Origin: an uncultured Bacteroidales bacterium
GTDB lineage: Bacteria; Bacteroidota; Bacteroidia; Bacteroidales; Dysgonomonadaceae
Direction of reading: 5' to 3'
DNA length: 48,569 bases
Assembly: GCA_964293155.1 (NCBI GenBank)
Contig: CAXYYA010000028.1
Span: 1-48,569, forward strand
Below the pieces are notes generated by a model. The model worked only from the letters and a program-made list of their open reading frames with translations, was not told the origin of the DNA and ran no database searches. Made by a program: the position numbers and the translations under genes. Shown here one piece after another: positions 7,640-46,523 of the stretch; position 1 is the first letter of the stretch; each line of letters opens with the position of its first letter.

Positions 7640-9310
7640 ATGACTATTCTTCCCGAAAAAATAGAAAATTATTCCGGCATCATCGCTTTTATGCTTAAGT
7701 ATCGTAACAGCCACGTTTTTAACACCGTTGTGGATAATGCCGCGGACTTAGACGATGACGAAAAAACCGAAAGCGATGATTCAGGAATAACTCCGCAGGA
7801 TTTTGCAAACGATCTTAAACAGATGGGCCCCGTGTATGTGAAGTTGGGACAACTCTTATCCACACGTCCCGATTTATTACCCGAAGAATATTTGGATGAA
7901 CTGGCAAATTTGCAGGACGATGTAGAACCCATTGGATATGGGAAGATTGAGCGGTTGATAGAAGAGGAATTGGGTGTAAGAATTTCCAAAGCTTTCAAGA
8001 CATTTGATCCGGCACCCTTAGCCAGCGCTTCCATCGGCCAGGTACACAGGGCGGAATTGCCATCGGGCAAAAAAGTGGCCGTTAAGGTGCAGCGTCCCGG
8101 TATCCGGAAACAGTTTACGGAAGAACTGGAAACCTTAAAAAACATGGTGGACATGGCCGTAAAATACACGAAAACAGCCGATAAATACGCGCTGGACGAT
8201 GTTCTGGATGAACTCAGCCACATGTTAATGAACGAGCTGGACTATAAAATGGAGGCTCAAAGTCTGGTTATTTTGGGACAAAATCTCAAAGAATACAAGC
8301 GTCTTATCGTTCCTCAGCCGGTGATGGATTATTGCACTCCAAAAATCTTAACGATGGATTATGTGGAAGGTAAGAAAGTTACAAAAGTATCGCCATTTAC
8401 CAAAACGGAAGTGGATTTCACTCCATTGATCGATGAGTTAGTTAAGTCCTATCTTCAACAAGTGGTTATTGACGGTTTTGCACACGCCGATCCGCATCCG
8501 GGTAATGTACATTTTACTCCTGACAATAAAATAGCGCTGATAGATTTGGGCATGGTAGCCAAATTTAGCAATACGTTGAAAGATCAAATGTTGCGTTTGC
8601 TCCTTGCCATGAGTGAAATGTCGGGCGATAAGATCGTGGATATTTTACTGGGAATGAGCACGTATGACGAGACTGCAATGATAAAAGATTTCAGGAAAGA
8701 TGTTAACAGATTAGTTCTGGATAATCAAATCAGTATCGCTAAAGATTTAAAAACAGGCCGACTGATTATTCAAATGAATCGGATGGCTGCCGAGCGAAAC
8801 ATAAAAATAGCCGTAGAACTAAATCTGCTCGGCAAAATATTGTTGAATATTGATCAGATTATTGCAACATTAACTCCCGATTATGATTTTCAGAAAGCTA
8901 TAAACGAAAATGCCGAACGGTTGATGACGCAGAAAATGACGCAGGAATTGAAACCTGAAAACATGTTTAAAATGCTGTTGGAAACCAAAAAATTGGGCGA
9001 AAATTTACCGGAACGTTTAAACAAAATTTCTCAACGTTTAGCGGACAACGAGTTTGAAATTAAAGTGAATGCGATTGACGAAAAACGTTTTACCGATGGT
9101 TTTCAGAAAGTGGCTAACCGAATTACTGTGGGGTTAATAATTGCGGCACTTATTCTTGCCGCTTCTATGCTCATGCGTATGCCCACAAGTTTTACCATTC
9201 TCGGATATCCCGGGTTACCCCTTATTTTCTTTTTAATTGCATCCGGAGCAGGGATTATGTTGGTTTATAATATCATATCGAAAGACGAATATTTCCGAAA
9301 AAGAAAATAG
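7640..9310 (+). CDS. ABC1/UbiB-family atypical protein kinase with C-terminal transmembrane helices
   Basis: 556 aa. ABC1 hallmarks ASASIGQVHRA, KVQRPG and HADPHPGN. Two hydrophobic helices at the C-terminus. Confidence 0.85.
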   Translation: MTILPEKIENYSGIIAFMLKYRNSHVFNTVVDNAADLDDDEKTESDDSGITPQDFANDLKQMGPVYVKLGQLLSTRPDLLPEEYLDELANLQDDVEPIGYGKIERLIEEELGVRISKAFKTFDPAPLASASIGQVHRAELPSGKKVAVKVQRPGIRKQFTEELETLKNMVDMAVKYTKTADKYALDDVLDELSHMLMNELDYKMEAQSLVILGQNLKEYKRLIVPQPVMDYCTPKILTMDYVEGKKVTKVSPFTKTEVDFTPLIDELVKSYLQQVVIDGFAHADPHPGNVHFTPDNKIALIDLGMVAKFSNTLKDQMLRLLLAMSEMSGDKIVDILLGMSTYDETAMIKDFRKDVNRLVLDNQISIAKDLKTGRLIIQMNRMAAERNIKIAVELNLLGKILLNIDQIIATLTPDYDFQKAINENAERLMTQKMTQELKPENMFKMLLETKKLGENLPERLNKISQRLADNEFEIKVNAIDEKRFTDGFQKVANRITVGLIIAALILAASMLMRMPTSFTILGYPGLPLIFFLIASGAGIMLVYNIISKDEYFRKRK

Positions 9311-9490
9311 CGGGAACATCATTTTAAAATTAACGTGAGTTCAATACAAGAAAAGGCTCTTAATTGATTTATAATAAGGTAATAAGGTCTTTGTTCTATT
9401 TTAATTTAACTCTACTAAGGTTGCTTTTAAAAAATAAGGTTTCCAATACGCTTTGAACCCTGCCTACCGCAGGCAAGCTTATTTACAAAT

Positions 9491-9839
9491 ATGATTATCC
9501 GCATAATGTCCTACATCAATTGCCACGTCCCTTTACAGGCTGTGTAAAAAACATCGCAACAGTATCAATTTGTCATTCCGACGATAGGAGGAATCTTATT
9601 TGTCATAAATTATAGACTCTTCACTCCGCAAAGCTGCGTTCAGAGTGACAAAAAGACACCTAATTTTCATTTTTACACAGCCTCTTTAGGGCGTGGTTTT
9701 TGAGATACAGAGCAGATAGGCTTTAGCCGAAATTTATACTATTATTGGGCTGAAGCCCGTAATTCTTAGACATTATTATCCCACGACTTAAAAATCGTGG
9801 CAATAGATAAAGCCGTTAGGACACTTTGCGGATAATCAT
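9491..9839 (+). mobile_element. MITE-like element, family A, copy 1 (interrupted by a family B insertion)
   Basis: About 23-bp terminal inverted repeats: ATGATTATCCGCATAATGTCCTA ... TAGGACACTTTGCGGATAATCAT. Internal CCACG...CGTGG hairpins and GGCTTTAGCC / GGGCTGAAGCCC arms. About 95 percent identical to the uninterrupted copy at 46228..46420, which is reverse-complemented. Confidence 0.75.
9536..9684 (+). mobile_element. MITE-like element, family B, copy 1, inserted inside family A
   Basis: 149 bp with TIRs CAGGCTGTGTAAAAA ... TTTTTACACAGCCTC. Flanked by duplicated TTTA (9532..9535 and 9685..9688). The empty site CCCTTTAGGG is visible in copy 46228..46420. A second copy lies at 23143..23292. 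Confidence 0.8.
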
Positions 9840-9984
9840 TTTTACGAATAATATAACCTTAATAGGAATCAACGCAAGCAAAGTTTCAGCCTTATTAGCT
9901 TATTTACTGATTCTTATGAAATGAGTTGTGTCAAACTCACGTTAATTATTTCTTTCGCATTTTACACGGATTAGAACCGATAAT

Positions 9985-11580
9985 TTAGCTACTGCACACC
10001 TGCAAAGCGGCCGGAACAATATCAATGGTTACGGGAGTTGTGCCGCTGATCTCACCGTCAATTACCAGTTTCTGCGTCGGGTGTGTATCTAACTCCACGT
10101 GTTTCCCCTGAAAATGCTTCACGAATTCGCTACCTTCGGTAGGTTTGTCTTTGAGCAACTGCACCAATGTTTCGGCGGCATTTGCTTCGTTTTCCACGTT
10201 CACGATTACCGTCACGTCCAGCAGCCCGTCGTCCGGTAACGGTTCAGAACCTCCCTGTGCAAAAATGGATGTTTTAGGTGCAGTGTTTGCGATTGTTACG
10301 CTTCCGGTTTGAAACGTGTAGGTTTGATCATCAACTTTTAACGTTGCTTCAAAAATATCTTCTTTTTTAATGTGTTTTATTCCTCCGAGAATGTATCCGA
10401 AAGCGCCCCATTCGTCTTTTAAGCCGTCTTCGGCTTCTTCGGTCATTCCGCGCTCCAAACCTGCGCCTGCAAGCAAAACCATGTAAGAGTCGTTTATTTT
10501 CGCTATATCAATTTTGCGCGTTTTTCCCGAAGTGATCACGGCGCACGCCGTTTCAATGGGTTTCAACCGGATGCCATCGCCGTACAACATGGAAGCCAGG
10601 GCGTTGCTCGTCCCGAACGGAATTATTCCCATTACTGCGTCGGTATTTACCAAGGCTTGAGCCACCTGTGTTACGGTACCGTCGCCTCCGGCGGCAACCA
10701 CAAATTGCTTCCCTTCATTCACCAATTGTTGGGCAATGTCTTTAGCCTGATTTTGCTCTGTAGCTTCATGGAACGTGAGTTCGAAAAAGCTTTTCAACAG
10801 TTCGTTGACTTTATCCAGTTTTTCTTCTTTGGCTGTTCCTGCTGCTGCATTATAGATGATATGCAGTTCATCGGATTTCTTTTCCATGGATATCCCGAAG
10901 CTGTTCAGACTGGCGAATTGTCGTGTATTCGGCTTAACGTTCGGCCTGACTTTCCGGACTTCGTCAATCAAATCCTGATACGAACGCGACGGGTCCAGAA
11001 ATTTGAGATACGCCAAAAGTACGGTCACCGACCGACCTTGTCCCAATGCGCAGTGGATCAAAACTTCTTTTCCGTCTTTTCGTTGCTGATCAATCCATCT
11101 GACAGCCATTTCCAATTGGTTTTTCCGGGGACTATTGTGATCCATTACCGGGATGTTCAGATATTCTACATCACGTCCTAAAAATTGTGTTTCAATGGCA
11201 TCGAATTCAGCCGTAACGTCCAGTATGGCATTGATAGGACTCTCTTTGAGCGATTTCAGATCGGTGAACACCAACCGTCTGCTCAACCATAATCCGTCAC
11301 GGATTTCCTGCAATGGTGGCACATTGTCTCTTGATCGGGCGATCAGATTAAAAATGGTGGCGCCCAGCAAAACCGGAAATATGGCAATTTTTATGTAAAA
11401 CGGTAGTCGCCCGCCCTTGCTTTTAAAAAGCATTTCGCCGAAGTCGGCGAAATAAGCGATCGCGTAATAAAGCGATGAGAGCGATATCCAGATTAAAATG
11501 ATCTGTAGGATAAGAGGAGTGAAAAAACTAAGTACGGCAACAAGTACCGAAAAAATCAGGTAGATGTATCCTCTGTTCAT
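9985..11580 (-). CDS. Membrane-anchored fusion of a dual-specificity (Cys-X5-Arg) phosphatase domain and a diacylglycerol/lipid kinase catalytic domain
   Basis: 531 aa with N-terminal TM helices. Phosphatase P-loop VLIHCALGQGRSV. DAGK_cat-type motifs VVAAGGDGTVTQVAQAL and GIIPFGTSNALA. Confidence 0.75.
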   Translation of the reverse strand: MNRGYIYLIFSVLVAVLSFFTPLILQIILIWISLSSLYYAIAYFADFGEMLFKSKGGRLPFYIKIAIFPVLLGATIFNLIARSRDNVPPLQEIRDGLWLSRRLVFTDLKSLKESPINAILDVTAEFDAIETQFLGRDVEYLNIPVMDHNSPRKNQLEMAVRWIDQQRKDGKEVLIHCALGQGRSVTVLLAYLKFLDPSRSYQDLIDEVRKVRPNVKPNTRQFASLNSFGISMEKKSDELHIIYNAAAGTAKEEKLDKVNELLKSFFELTFHEATEQNQAKDIAQQLVNEGKQFVVAAGGDGTVTQVAQALVNTDAVMGIIPFGTSNALASMLYGDGIRLKPIETACAVITSGKTRKIDIAKINDSYMVLLAGAGLERGMTEEAEDGLKDEWGAFGYILGGIKHIKKEDIFEATLKVDDQTYTFQTGSVTIANTAPKTSIFAQGGSEPLPDDGLLDVTVIVNVENEANAAETLVQLLKDKPTEGSEFVKHFQGKHVELDTHPTQKLVIDGEISGTTPVTIDIVPAALQVCSS

Positions 11581-17703: not shown

Positions 17704-17744
17704 AGGGAAAAGGTCTGTACAACATTTGTTATAAAATTATTTTT

Positions 17745-17960
17745 ATGATTATCCGCAAAGTGTCCTAATATCAATTGCCACGGCTTTCAAGCCGTGGAAG
17801 GTATGAATTTAATTAAATTGGCTTTAGCCGAAATTTATGTAAACTTCCCGATTGCGGAATAAGTTGGGCTAAAGCCCATCTCATAGATACATCTAATTAT
17901 CCACGCCATAAATGGCGTGGCAATTGACACGGTTAATTAGGAAGGTTTGCGGATAATCAT
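17745..17960 (+). mobile_element. MITE-like element, family A, copy 2
   Basis: Same TIRs (ATGATTATCCGCAAAGTGTCCTAA ... TTTGCGGATAATCAT). Same architecture with perfect 9-bp hairpins CCACGGCTT-TC-AAGCCGTGG and CCACGCCAT-AA-ATGGCGTGG. Confidence 0.7.
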
Positions 17961-18239
17961 TATTATTTTAAACGCTAAGACGCCAAGCCGCTACGTTATT
18001 TTCTCATTTAAAAGAAAGCCTGTCTCTCAGATTATTAGTGAGGTGAAAAATAACTCTTTGCGCCTTCCCGTCTTTGCGCCTTTGCGTACATAAAACGCTT
18101 TTATATGCTGATGTGCGTTATTTTTTGATGAAATGTTGTTAGCGATGTAGTCCCTATAATTATCGGATCACTTCAAACAATGATAAATTGAAAAGATTAT
18201 CATGATTTTGATACAACTTCTTCAATTAACCATAAACTT

Positions 18240-18451
18240 AGAAACTGTTTTGAATTTTTTCTGACGATGTTTTTTATTCATTTTTTGATGGATTTGGATT
18301 CCTGCCTGCGGCAGGCGGGTTCGTTACGAATCAAATAGCGGGCTATTTGGAAGAAAGGAAAATTCAAAGACGCAAAAAAGGGCAAAAAACAGTCTGAAAG
18401 AATCAGAAAAATAGTTAAAAAACAAGATTCGTAAAATTCAAAACAGTTTCT
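18240..18451. repeat. Segment bounded by an 18-19 bp perfect inverted repeat directly upstream of the GH20-like gene
   Basis: GAAACTGTTTTGAATTTT (18241..18258) and AAAATTCAAAACAGTTTC (18433..18450). The interior contains the hairpin CCTGCCTGCGGCAGGCGGG. Confidence 0.5.
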
Positions 18452-23048: not shown

Positions 23049-23057
23049 GACGTAAAG

Positions 23058-23329
23058 TTTATCCGCAATGTTTCGAGGCTGAGAATTTTCAGTAGTCATG
23101 GCTAAAGCCGGTGTTCACGTTTGCTGGGTTCTCCGCTTTAAACAGGCTGTGTAAGAAACATCGCAACAGTATCATTTTGTCATTCCGACGATAGGAGGAA
23201 TCTTTATTTGTCATAAATTATAAACTCTTCACTCCGCAAAGCTGCGTTCAGAGTGACAAAAAGACACCTAATTTTCATTTTTACACAGCCTCTAAAAGCA
23301 GGGTTATTAAGACGTATTGCGGATAATCA
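23058..23329. mobile_element. Degenerate family-A-like shell carrying a family B insertion
   Basis: Ends TTATCCGCAAT ... ATTGCGGATAA form an 11-12 bp inverted repeat matching the core of the family A TIR. The interior has a GGCTAAAGCC motif. Confidence 0.45.
23143..23292 (+). mobile_element. MITE-like element, family B, copy 2
   Basis: 150 bp with four differences from copy 1 (9536..9684). Flanked by TAAA on both sides (23139..23142 and 23293..23296). Confidence 0.8.
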
Positions 23330-23455
23330 AAAAAATGACTATTTTTGTGAACGGGAAAAACATTTGTAAATGCCCATTAATTTGGTTGATTATTAAATCG
23401 CATAAATGAAGATGTTGGCAACGATTTGTAAATGTAAACTACAAAAATTTGGTAA

Positions 23456-23659: not shown

Positions 23660-23663
23660 TAAA

Positions 23664-23891
23664 CGTTCATCACACCCTTCCCGCTTACGCGGATTTCTCG
23701 TCATAACGAGCGCACAGGTTCGAGCGGTAATCGGTGTGTGCCGCAGGCAAGAGTTTACTTCGTAACACACGCTTTGCAAAAGCGCGCGAGCACAAGCGGG
23801 ACACGAAGTTTGTAACTTCGTGAACGAAGGCACAGCCATCGTCTCCCAATAAAAAAATCCGCCAAACGCTTCATCGCTTGGCGGATTTTTT
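23664..23891 (+). ncRNA. Candidate structured RNA of unassigned family, ending at an intrinsic terminator
   Basis: GC-rich island in an AT-rich spacer. Local hairpins at 23697..23710, 23770..23784 and 23802..23822. Long-range pairs CGTTCA/TGAACG (23664-69 / 23821-26) and CCCGCTT/AAGCGGG (23680-86 / 23794-800). Terminator at 23851..23891. The only ORF (62 aa, minus strand) is Cys/Arg-rich and not protein-like. Confidence 0.35.
23851..23891. terminator. Bidirectional intrinsic terminator
   Basis: Stem ATCCGCCAAACG / CGCTTGGCGGAT with one mismatch, A7 on the left and T6 on the right. It ends the minus-strand OMP gene and would also end the plus-strand RNA candidate. Confidence 0.8.
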
Positions 23892-23912
23892 ATACAGTTG
23901 ATCTTTAAATTT

Positions 23913-36077: not shown

Positions 36078-36108
36078 GAAAAAATGGGGAGCGAATCCCC
36101 ATTTTTTT
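36078..36108 (-). terminator. Bidirectional intrinsic terminator after the Gly/Arg repeat protein gene
   Basis: ATGGGGA-GCGAA-TCCCCAT flanked by A7 and T7, 16 nt after stop codon 36124. Confidence 0.8.
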
Positions 36109-36123
36109 GTGGTTGGTGCGTGG

Positions 36124-36687
36124 TTATTTTGTGGTTTCCCTACGGTCGCAAATACCGTTTTTATTGGCGTCCACAAAATTTACCGCACTGCCTTTTCCAT
36201 TCCGAAGGCCGGTGCCTTTCCCTGTACCGCGTCCCTGGCGCGGTGTTCCGTTTTCGAAGTTGTCACAAATGCCGTCTTTGTCGGCATCTACGAAATTTGC
36301 TCCACCACCTCTGCCGTTACGCAGTCCGTTGCCATAGCCTTGTCCGCGTCCTCCACGGGGAGTTCCGTTTTCGAAATTGTCGCACACGCCATCTTTATCG
36401 GCATCCACAAAGAAGCGTCCTTGTCCTCTGCCGTTGCGTAATCCCTGGCCTTTGCCTTGTCCGCGGCCGCTACCGTCGAGCAGTCGTTGTTTGCCGTTGG
36501 CATTCGGATTTCCGGGTGTTCCGTTCTCGAAATTATCGCAAACGCCGTTGTTGTTTTTGTCCACAAATGCAGGTCCGGTTTGAGCGGTTTTCGCCGTTTC
36601 CTTTGCTGCCTGATTTTGATTTTGGGCGGTTGCTAATCCTATGGTGGCAACCAGCGCCATTGCAGTGATAAATACTTTTGTTTTCAT
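36124..36687 (-). CDS. Secreted repeat protein with four FVDxDKDG(V/I)CDNFENGTP modules separated by Gly/Arg-rich linkers
   Basis: 187 aa with a signal peptide ending ATAQ. The modules carry a DxDxDG calcium-loop-like motif and one Cys each. Linkers are of the type GRGQGYGNGLRNGRGGG. Repeats 2 and 3 are 39 aa each. Confidence 0.7.
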   Translation of the reverse strand: MKTKVFITAMALVATIGLATAQNQNQAAKETAKTAQTGPAFVDKNNNGVCDNFENGTPGNPNANGKQRLLDGSGRGQGKGQGLRNGRGQGRFFVDADKDGVCDNFENGTPRGGRGQGYGNGLRNGRGGGANFVDADKDGICDNFENGTPRQGRGTGKGTGLRNGKGSAVNFVDANKNGICDRRETTK

Positions 36688-46150: not shown

Positions 46151-46227
46151 TAAATTAACAGATAATATTTTATGTTTTAGAGCAGGTTTTTTGGGAAAAA
46201 TGATAAGGTTAACCATCAATTTTTCAC

Positions 46228-46420
46228 ATTATCCGCGAAGTGTTCTAACGGCTTTATCCATTGCCACGACTTTTAAGTCGTGGGATAATGATGTCTAAGA
46301 ATTACGGGCTTTAGCCCAATAATAGTATAAATTTCGGCTAAAGCCTATCTGCTCTGTATCTCAAAAACCACGCCCTAAAGGGACGTGGCAATTGATGTAG
46401 GACATTATACGGATAATCAT
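46228..46420 (-). mobile_element. MITE-like element, family A, copy 3 (uninterrupted, reverse orientation)
   Basis: Its reverse complement aligns end to end with 9491..9839 minus the family B insert. It shows the empty target site CCCTTTAGGG. Confidence 0.75.
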
Positions 46421-46523
46421 ATTAAATTATTATTCATGTCATTTCCTCTTTATGCCCAATTTTGGGTGGGGACGTGACAAGATGAAACTGTTCTTGCTCT
46501 TTTGATACTGCCTCTTTTATTGT

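Follow-up and report, generated by a model that had tools for sequence, protein, structure and literature searches.

Three nested transposase-less elements with IS982-, IS1595- and IS1182-type ends probably make up an intergenic spacer of a Bacteroidales bacterium

The spacer and its three layers

The 48,569-nt contig CAXYYA010000028.1 (assembly GCA_964293155.1) of an uncultured Bacteroidales bacterium was analysed over its whole length, hereafter called the window. This work concerns a 620-bp gene-free spacer between two converging genes, which encode an ABC1-type kinase (7640-9310, forward strand) and a phosphatase/diacylglycerol-kinase fusion (9985-11580, reverse strand). A first-pass annotation, made from the letters alone, had described three levels of nested repeats in this spacer, and all of these layers were found to be present. 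The spacer most probably consists of three miniature inverted-repeat transposable elements (MITEs) without transposases, each inside another, with ends of the insertion sequence (IS) families IS982, IS1595 and IS1182; we put the probability of this reading at about 0.85. From the outside inwards the layers are termed level 1, level 2 (family A, copy A1) and level 3 (family B, copy B1).

9327-9332, left target duplication of the outer element, AAATTA (5/6 match to TAATTA)
9333-9942, level 1, IS982-type MITE, 610 bp in its present form, 261 bp minus families A and B
9482-9489, left 8-bp target duplication of A1, TTTACAAA (7/8 match to TTTACGAA)
9490-9840, forward strand, A1, level 2, IS1595-type (ISBbi1-like) MITE, about 198 bp minus the B insert
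9532-9535, left 4-bp duplication of B1, TTTA, the loop of the left family A hairpin, with the empty site in copy A2
9536-9684, forward strand, B1, level 3, IS1182-type MITE, 149 bp, with ends matching IS1182-family elements
9685-9688, right 4-bp duplication of B1, TTTA
9841-9848, right 8-bp target duplication of A1, TTTACGAA (7/8 match to TTTACAAA)
9943-9948, right target duplication of the outer element, TAATTA (5/6 match to AAATTA)

Direct observations are the anatomy of the nest, with its duplications and empty site, the identity of the termini to those of autonomous elements from three families, and a bias towards palindromic targets. The sizes of levels 1, 2 and 3 (261, about 198 and 149 bp) are those of MITEs, and none of the layers carries a transposase gene; the longest open reading frame (ORF) lying wholly inside level 1 has 32 amino acids (aa), and the longest overlapping the spacer has 33 aa. 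Terminal inverted repeats are present in all three, with 14/17 matching nt in level 1 (19/22 when the duplication is included), 21/23 in family A and 14 perfect nt in family B. Target duplications are perfect for family B (TTTA and TAAA), 7/8 (A1) and 8/8 (A3) for family A, and only 5/6 for level 1. Family A is represented by four copies in the window, family B by two and level 1 by one. The three layers are new MITE families of known kinds, which they fit in terminus, duplication length and size.

No transposase was found in the window, either by Pfam scans of its 37 ORFs or by tblastn with IS1595, IS1182 and IS982 transposases, in agreement with the first-pass annotation. That annotation had also regarded the repeats as MITE-like passengers of a single autonomous element; they belong instead to three unrelated MITE families, the termini of which match IS982, IS1595/ISBbi1-like and IS1182 elements, respectively.

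Several observations weigh against the reading given above. Transposases of the three families were absent not only from the window but also from ~90 kb of related contigs examined, and the autonomous elements with matching termini belong to other organisms. Those of the IS1182 type lie in high-GC Proteobacteria-like hosts and have only the terminal 15-20 nt in common with family B, and some older IS1182-type copies (L003, L004 and L014; L numbers denote loci recovered by the database scans) lack matching duplications. Level 1 is single-copy in all data searched and its duplication is imperfect. Nor was an empty site found for it: the corresponding intergenic DNA of GCA_023424395.1 (86% protein identity) is unrelated and holds a 73-aa ORF, and in a relative with 89% identity the synteny differs at this locus.

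The outer element

The first-pass annotation had bounded the outermost layer by a 14-bp perfect inverted repeat enclosing 620 bp. The repeat exists, with AATTAACGTGAGTT at 9328-9341 and its exact reverse complement at 9934-9947, and it extends to 19/22 nt, but the true boundary lies 5 nt further inside, at ACGTGAGTT starting from 9333 and AACTCACGT ending at 9942. The 14-mer is therefore composed of 9 nt of terminus and 5 nt of near-palindromic target duplication. Elements of ~1.0 kb that encode IS982 transposases, in L248, L257, L237, L244 and L456, have ends matching the termini ACGTGAGTTCAATACAA and ACGTGAGTTTGACACAA (reverse complement).

The window has six perfect inverted repeats with arms of 14 nt or more lying within 1 kb, compared with 0.3 expected from 200 first-order Markov simulations of it. 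Since 24% of the simulated windows gave at least one such repeat, the level 1 repeat alone was only suggestive. It became convincing because both of its arms matched the 18-nt IS982-type terminal consensus AATTAACGTGAGTTCGAC, from which they differ at two and one positions (16/18 and 17/18). Scanning viral contigs with the 14-mer yielded elements of 998-1063 bp ending in AATTAACGTGAGTTCGAC; the 14-mer occurred 101 times, and in 15 cases it is followed by CGA, far more often than the roughly 1.6 expected by chance. Two of the elements, L248 and L257, encode IS982 proteins of 301 and 303 aa (NF033520, E = 8.7e-77 and 1.9e-82), with scores of 258 and 277 bits (cut-off, 130 bits). Additional IS982-type copies were present in L237, L244, L232 and L275, and non-autonomous elements of 140-298 bp with IS982-type ends in L243 and L201.

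IS982-type elements with matching termini are flanked by 6-7-bp duplications on T(A)AATTA-like targets. The annotated IS982 copy of Prevotella nigrescens has the ends ACGTGAGTT...AACTCACGT and the 7-bp duplication ATACTTA, while the duplications of other copies are TAAATTA (7/7), TAATTTA (7/7), TAATTA (6/6) and TAAATTA/TAAGTTA (6/7). A first model of the level 1 ends, in which they begin with AATTAACG and are accompanied by no duplication or by a TTAA duplication, was dropped because the Prevotella copy shows ACGTG...CACGT ends and a 7-bp duplication.

The best surviving alternative is that only the two inner layers are mobile, the outer inverted repeat being due to chance or part of ordinary intergenic DNA and its likeness to IS982 coincidental. 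It draws on the 24% of simulated windows with a comparable repeat, on the lack of an empty site, on the 5/6 duplication and on the 261-bp interior, which has no second copy in the window or the fetched loci and no similarity beyond the termini in anything searched, except at the same locus of a sister strain. It is nevertheless unlikely, given that the two arms match the 18-nt consensus independently and that 4 of these 18 positions fall outside the 14-mer used in the search. Furthermore, the flanks AAATTA and TAATTA fit the target consensus of eight other IS982-type elements, non-autonomous elements of 140-298 bp with the same ends occur elsewhere, and the boundaries of the outer element coincide with the ends of the gene-free spacer. 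The assignment of level 1 to IS982, although the weakest of the three, is probable. Because it is single-copy, has one or two substitutions in its termini and an imperfect duplication, level 1 looks old, and it is possibly immobile.

The middle element

Besides A1, three other copies of family A are found in the window, one of which carries the second copy of family B.

46226-46423, reverse strand, A2, uninterrupted copy of family A and empty-site reference; hairpin at 46368-46388 with loop TAAA at 46376-46379 (plus strand)
17744-17961, forward strand, A3, ~70% identical to A1 and A2, with the perfect 8-bp duplication ATTATTTT at 17736-17743 and 17962-17969
23057-23331, forward strand, A4, short A-like element carrying B2, with ends TTTATCCGCAATG... 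and ...TTGCGGATAATCA, upstream of ffh
23143-23292, forward strand, B2, 150 bp, inserted at the centre of the palindrome GCTTTAAAAGC, with TAAA duplicated at 23139-23142 and 23293-23296

The limits given for family A in the first-pass annotation (9491-9839, with ~23-bp terminal inverted repeats) hold well: the ends ATGATTATCCGCATAATGTCCTA and TAGGACACTTTGCGGATAATCAT agree at 21/23 nt, and an 8-bp duplication can now be added. The terminal signature of the family is ATGATTATCCGCAAAGTG, and its terminus ATGATTATCCGCAAAGTGTCCTAAT is common to ~1080-bp autonomous elements with IS1595-family transposases. A scan of viral contigs with the terminal 15-mer of family A recovered a 1046-bp element (L092, 1309-2354), the 316-aa protein of which belongs to IS1595 (NF033547, E = 2.8e-63, 214 bits against a cut-off of 75 bits; Pfam domains DDE_Tnp_IS1595 and Zn_ribbon_IS1595). 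In metagenomes the terminal 19-mer was found at no fewer than 120 loci (at least 120), and at least 14 metagenome loci have a full-length IS1595-family transposase gene, the product of which is 53-57% identical to the L092 protein. Among the matches listed, 11 elements of 1075-1104 bp have both family A ends and ~45 short derivatives of 112-850 bp have the family A terminus. The metagenomic IS1595-type elements are identical to A3 over the terminal 26-33 nt.

The position of the duplication was determined by a register test on 54 related elements among the matches listed, which placed an 8-bp duplication one base outside ATGATT.../...AATCAT; it is exact in 16 of the 54, whereas re-paired flanks scored in the adjacent (offset-0) register gave 0.1 exact duplications. 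Duplications of 10 or 9 bp, which had also been considered for family A, were resolved by this test into 8 bp and one terminal base. The same geometry is seen in the nearest annotated relative, ISBbi1 of Bacteroides fragilis, which has the 8-bp duplication AATAAATT and a left end, TGATTCTCCGCAAACACACCTAATAT, agreeing with that of family A at 21/26 nt.

Family A is a near-palindromic chain of four short hairpins with TTTA/TAAA loops, and its predicted fold is strongly non-random (z = -5.3). Such a structure would also suit a repeat resembling repetitive extragenic palindromes (REPs) or bacterial interspersed mosaic elements (BIMEs), or a structured RNA gene, that had spread by recombination or by a tyrosine transposase and received family B later; the occurrence of the hairpin modules in unrelated repeats of another phylum points the same way. 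This origin is very improbable, since the terminal 26-33 nt of family A are those of autonomous IS1595-family elements and direct repeats of 8 bp adjoin its copies in the register typical of IS1595. The REP elements of REP/RAYT systems (RAYT, REP-associated tyrosine transposase) are not known to have long terminal inverted repeats or target duplications, whereas family A, with its 23-nt terminal inverted repeats and 8-bp duplications, has both and does not conform to the REP/BIME definition. Family A also matches no Rfam family: at the gathering score Rfam 15 gave no match in the whole window, and a permissive scan of the region returned only chance-level hits (E >= 0.095).

The hairpin modules seen in family A (9491-9839), namely CCACG...CGTGG, GGCTTTAGCC and GGGCTAAAGCCC with TTTA/TAAA/TTCA loops, are shared with an unrelated ~450-bp IS1182-type MITE (L014, 2622-3090) of a Calditrichia metagenome-assembled genome (MAG), JALWDQ01.

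The innermost element

The insertion of family B can be reconstructed to the base, as the first-pass annotation had proposed: the empty site in A2 reads CCCTTTAGGG, where A1 reads CCCTTTA-[149 bp]-TTTAGGG. On either side of the insertion A1 and A2 are 98% identical over 48 nt and 96% identical over 153 nt. B1 and B2 are 97% identical to each other, and their ends are CAGGCTGTGTAAAAA and GAGGCTGTGTAAAAA (reverse complement). Short duplications had been predicted for other B copies as well, and these were found: that of B2 is a perfect TAAA, and relatives show perfect duplications of 4-5 bp, namely TGAA (TTCA on the other strand), TTTTA, TATTT and GGCC.

A scan of viral contigs with the 15-mer GAGGCTGTGTAAAAA gave two complete elements, L025 (1587 bp, duplication GGCC) and L079 (1664 bp, CGCC). 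Each encodes an IS1182-family transposase of ~480 aa (NF033551, E = 1.5e-116 and 9e-126; scores of 390 and 421 bits; cut-off, 270 bits) with the Pfam domains DUF772, DDE_Tnp_1 and DDE_Tnp_1_6. In L063 a third IS1182 transposase gene adjoins the same 15-nt terminus, the element being cut by the contig end. The same scan revealed many MITEs of 128-172 bp with a B-type end, flanked by 4-bp duplications (GGCC). The perfect duplications TGAA, TTTTA and TATTT belong to a ~450-bp non-autonomous family of a Calditrichia MAG with the same terminal 20 nt, and a scan of a genome collection with the terminal 20-mer of family B detected a 265-bp relative in a Bacteroidales MAG.

Further searches added little. 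The genome-collection scan with the 20-nt end gave no autonomous partner, its other matches being due to chance; a viral scan with AGGCTGTGTAAAAAAC returned mostly new chance-like or coding-sequence matches and a few loci from the first scan; and megablast of the L025 IS1182 element against plasmids gave no match. One chance 20-mer match, in Nostoc sp. NIES-4103 (L017, 2438-4477), lies ~30 bp upstream of a 662-aa ORF, the N-terminus of which resembles Cas12k from CRISPR-associated transposons of cyanobacteria; this match has no bearing on the nest.

That the A+B composite is ancestral and A2 lost B by precise excision, or that recombination between repeats rather than insertion was at work, is formally conceivable from two copies that are near-identical apart from B, yet it is the least credible of the alternatives: A2 has exactly one TTTA and the occupied site two, as expected of an insertion, given that DDE transposases rarely excise an element precisely; A3 is likewise without B; B2 lies in a different A-like element, in a different palindrome and with a different duplication (TAAA); strains SRR30104878/82 have B in the equivalent hairpin in opposite orientation; and B-type elements of other phyla occur outside A elements.

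Preference for hairpins and palindromes

The TTTA duplicated in A1 is, in the predicted fold, the loop of the hairpin CCACGTCCC-TTTA-GGGCGTGG, and the target of family B can be described as the CCACGTCCCTTTAGGGCGTGG hairpin. A similar arrangement is seen at the L006 site, CCACAAA-TGAA-TTTGTGG, and the GGCC sites lie in the middle of REP-like palindromes. The 31 candidate sites, which include a few chance end pairings, have on average 4.94 complementary pairs out of 10 in the flanks of the duplication, compared with 3.65 +/- 0.25 after re-pairing of the flanks; a value as high as 4.94 occurred in none of 500 controls. IS1182-type elements therefore favour the centres of palindromes or hairpins, and it may be the hairpin structure, not the sequence, that they recognise. 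As palindrome centres are favoured and family A is built of hairpins, it is understandable that both B copies of the window lie inside A-type elements.

It is possible, though we propose it only tentatively, that what the transposases of this IS1182-type subgroup recognise is the extruded hairpin or palindrome centre as such, and that they make a staggered cut across the loop, so that the loop becomes the 4-5-bp duplication. If so, hairpin-rich MITEs such as family A, and the hairpin modules that MITEs of different phyla have in common, would serve as preferred harmless landing pads, and self-reinforcing nests of elements could develop in gene-free spacers.

A pair of elements in L013 (4433-4954), from a Calditrichia MAG, is of a related kind: a 75-bp terminal fragment of the ~450-bp MITE ends in its own hairpin loop (CCCCGAGCTTTTA), and a full copy of the MITE starts where this fragment ends. 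The two copies are either self-nested or rearranged.

Order of insertion and proposed mechanism

The spacer was most probably assembled in three steps. A 261-bp IS982-type MITE would have inserted into a TAATTA-like site with a 6-bp duplication, and family A, a ~198-bp IS1595-type (ISBbi1-like) MITE, would then have entered level 1 with an 8-bp duplication. Finally, family B, a 149-bp IS1182-type MITE, would have inserted into the 4-nt loop of the left family A hairpin, duplicating the loop TTTA exactly, with family A acting as its landing pad. The match between the duplications falls outwards, from 4/4 in the innermost layer through 7/8 in the middle to 5/6 in the outermost, and this decay agrees with the nesting order.

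Each layer appears to keep only the ends bound by its parent transposase and would have been moved in trans, by a cut-and-paste reaction, by a different DDE transposase. Since the window encodes none, these enzymes are presumed to be encoded elsewhere in the same genome or to have been lost already; the former, with the cognate transposases acting in trans, is what we infer.

Variation among strains

Families A and B were active recently: their paralogues are 96-99% identical, and in strains that share more than 99% identity with the window, contigs break off within A1, A2 and B2. A2 is contained in one such relative, L435 (GCA_028698105.1), which has 99.76% identity to the window.

At the locus upstream of ffh, a contig of a 99%-identical strain (L432) passes the A4 hairpin without B2. 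Its last 60 nt are only ~80% identical, which also counts against the reading adopted here, as the contig may contain a paralogous copy joined by the assembler. In two other samples (L433 and L434) the A-like copy at this locus is a different one, and the corresponding hairpin, CCACGCCCTAAAG, holds a B end that points the opposite way. Close strains therefore appear to differ in the occupancy of the insertion sites.

The practical consequences concern annotation and assembly. Short-read assemblies of this species are interrupted precisely at these repeats, and the terminal signatures and duplication lengths can be used for masking three MITE families in genomes of Bacteroidota and related organisms. 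The locus also provides a worked, base-exact case of bacterial intergenic DNA built wholly of stacked non-autonomous transposons. A three-deep stack of different non-autonomous families is a tidy illustration that introduces no new principle, and beyond the points on annotation, assembly and mechanism the current understanding is unchanged.

Other features of the window

The window is housekeeping DNA of Bacteroidota, in which Pfam scans identified SusC/SusD-like genes, an Mfa-type fimbrillin gene, ffh and folD. The closest named homologues of the ABC1-type kinase are ~60% identical and come from Flavobacteriaceae, and exact-protein look-ups with this kinase and with the TsaB-like protein gave no record.

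Just upstream of a GH20 gene, the 19-nt perfect inverted repeat AGAAACTGTTTTGAATTTT bounds 212 bp (18240-18451). This segment, which may represent a fourth MITE family, contains the hairpin CCTGCCTGCGGCAGG, and a similar hairpin occurs in level 1 at 9461-9475; no partner element was found for the repeat in the viral-contig scan. Between the nested pair A4/B2 and the next gene lies a GC-rich region (23660-23895) with a strongly non-random predicted fold (z = -5.3), which ends in a bidirectional terminator (23852-23891) and for which Rfam gave nothing above chance. Repeats of 117 bp, arranged in tandem and 72-80% identical, are found at 36145-36473 within overlapping ORFs (36084-36687) without a Pfam match. 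In GCA_023424395.1 (L190, 4868-5416; 86% protein identity) a fragment of the histidyl-tRNA synthetase gene has been duplicated next to an IS200/IS605-type Y1 transposase gene, and the window lacks such a transposase gene at the corresponding place.

Comparison with known systems

The outer element resembles the IS982 elements of Bacteroidales annotated in Prevotella nigrescens, Bacteroides and Phocaeicola plasmids. Their ends begin with AC (ACGTGAGTTCGAC...), they generate 6-7-bp duplications on T(A)AATTA-like targets, and short derivatives of 140-298 bp occur elsewhere. It differs from them in that the window copy is single, its termini are 1-2 substitutions off and its duplication is imperfect.

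Family A is close to the ISBbi1-like IS1595 elements. Its terminus, (A)TGATTATCCGCAAAGTGTCCTAAT, is common over 26-33 nt with the ~1080-bp metagenomic elements, and the AT-rich 8-bp duplication and an inverted repeat of ~23-25 nt are also alike; a reported IS1595-type MITE has a 25-nt inverted repeat and an 8-bp direct repeat (PMC3852290). Unlike the autonomous elements, family A has an interior unrelated to the transposase gene, with an array of hairpins in its place.

Family B shares a size of ~150 bp and a 4-bp duplication with IS1182-derived MITEs, and palindromic or hairpin targets with IS1272/TnSha1. Its terminal inverted repeats are identical over 15 nt to those of autonomous IS1182 elements; these elements belong to other phyla and resemble family B in no more than the terminal 15-20 nt. 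The ISMac2-related IS1182 MITEs of Methanosarcina acetivorans, of ~160 bp, have 4-bp direct repeats (PMC3852290). IS1272/TnSha1, a member of the IS1182 family, inserts into hairpins, and a 2015 review is cited in the same papers as stating that some IS1182 members target palindromes (PMC4923244, PMC5678879). For IS1272/TnSha1 a blunt cut of the stem with partial deletion of the hairpin and no duplication was reported, whereas family B duplicates the loop or centre and leaves the rest of the hairpin intact. Loop duplication here and stem deletion by the staphylococcal IS1272 suggest two modes of structure-directed integration in one family.

The nesting of prokaryotic IS and MITE elements has been acknowledged in annotation work (PMC3852290). 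Like the 'Russian doll' elements that are common in plants, the nest described here reflects successive insertions that can be reconstructed from duplications. It differs from known nested elements in having three levels, all non-autonomous and from three IS families, within a 620-bp bacterial intergenic spacer, and in that a preference for structured targets accounts for its innermost step.

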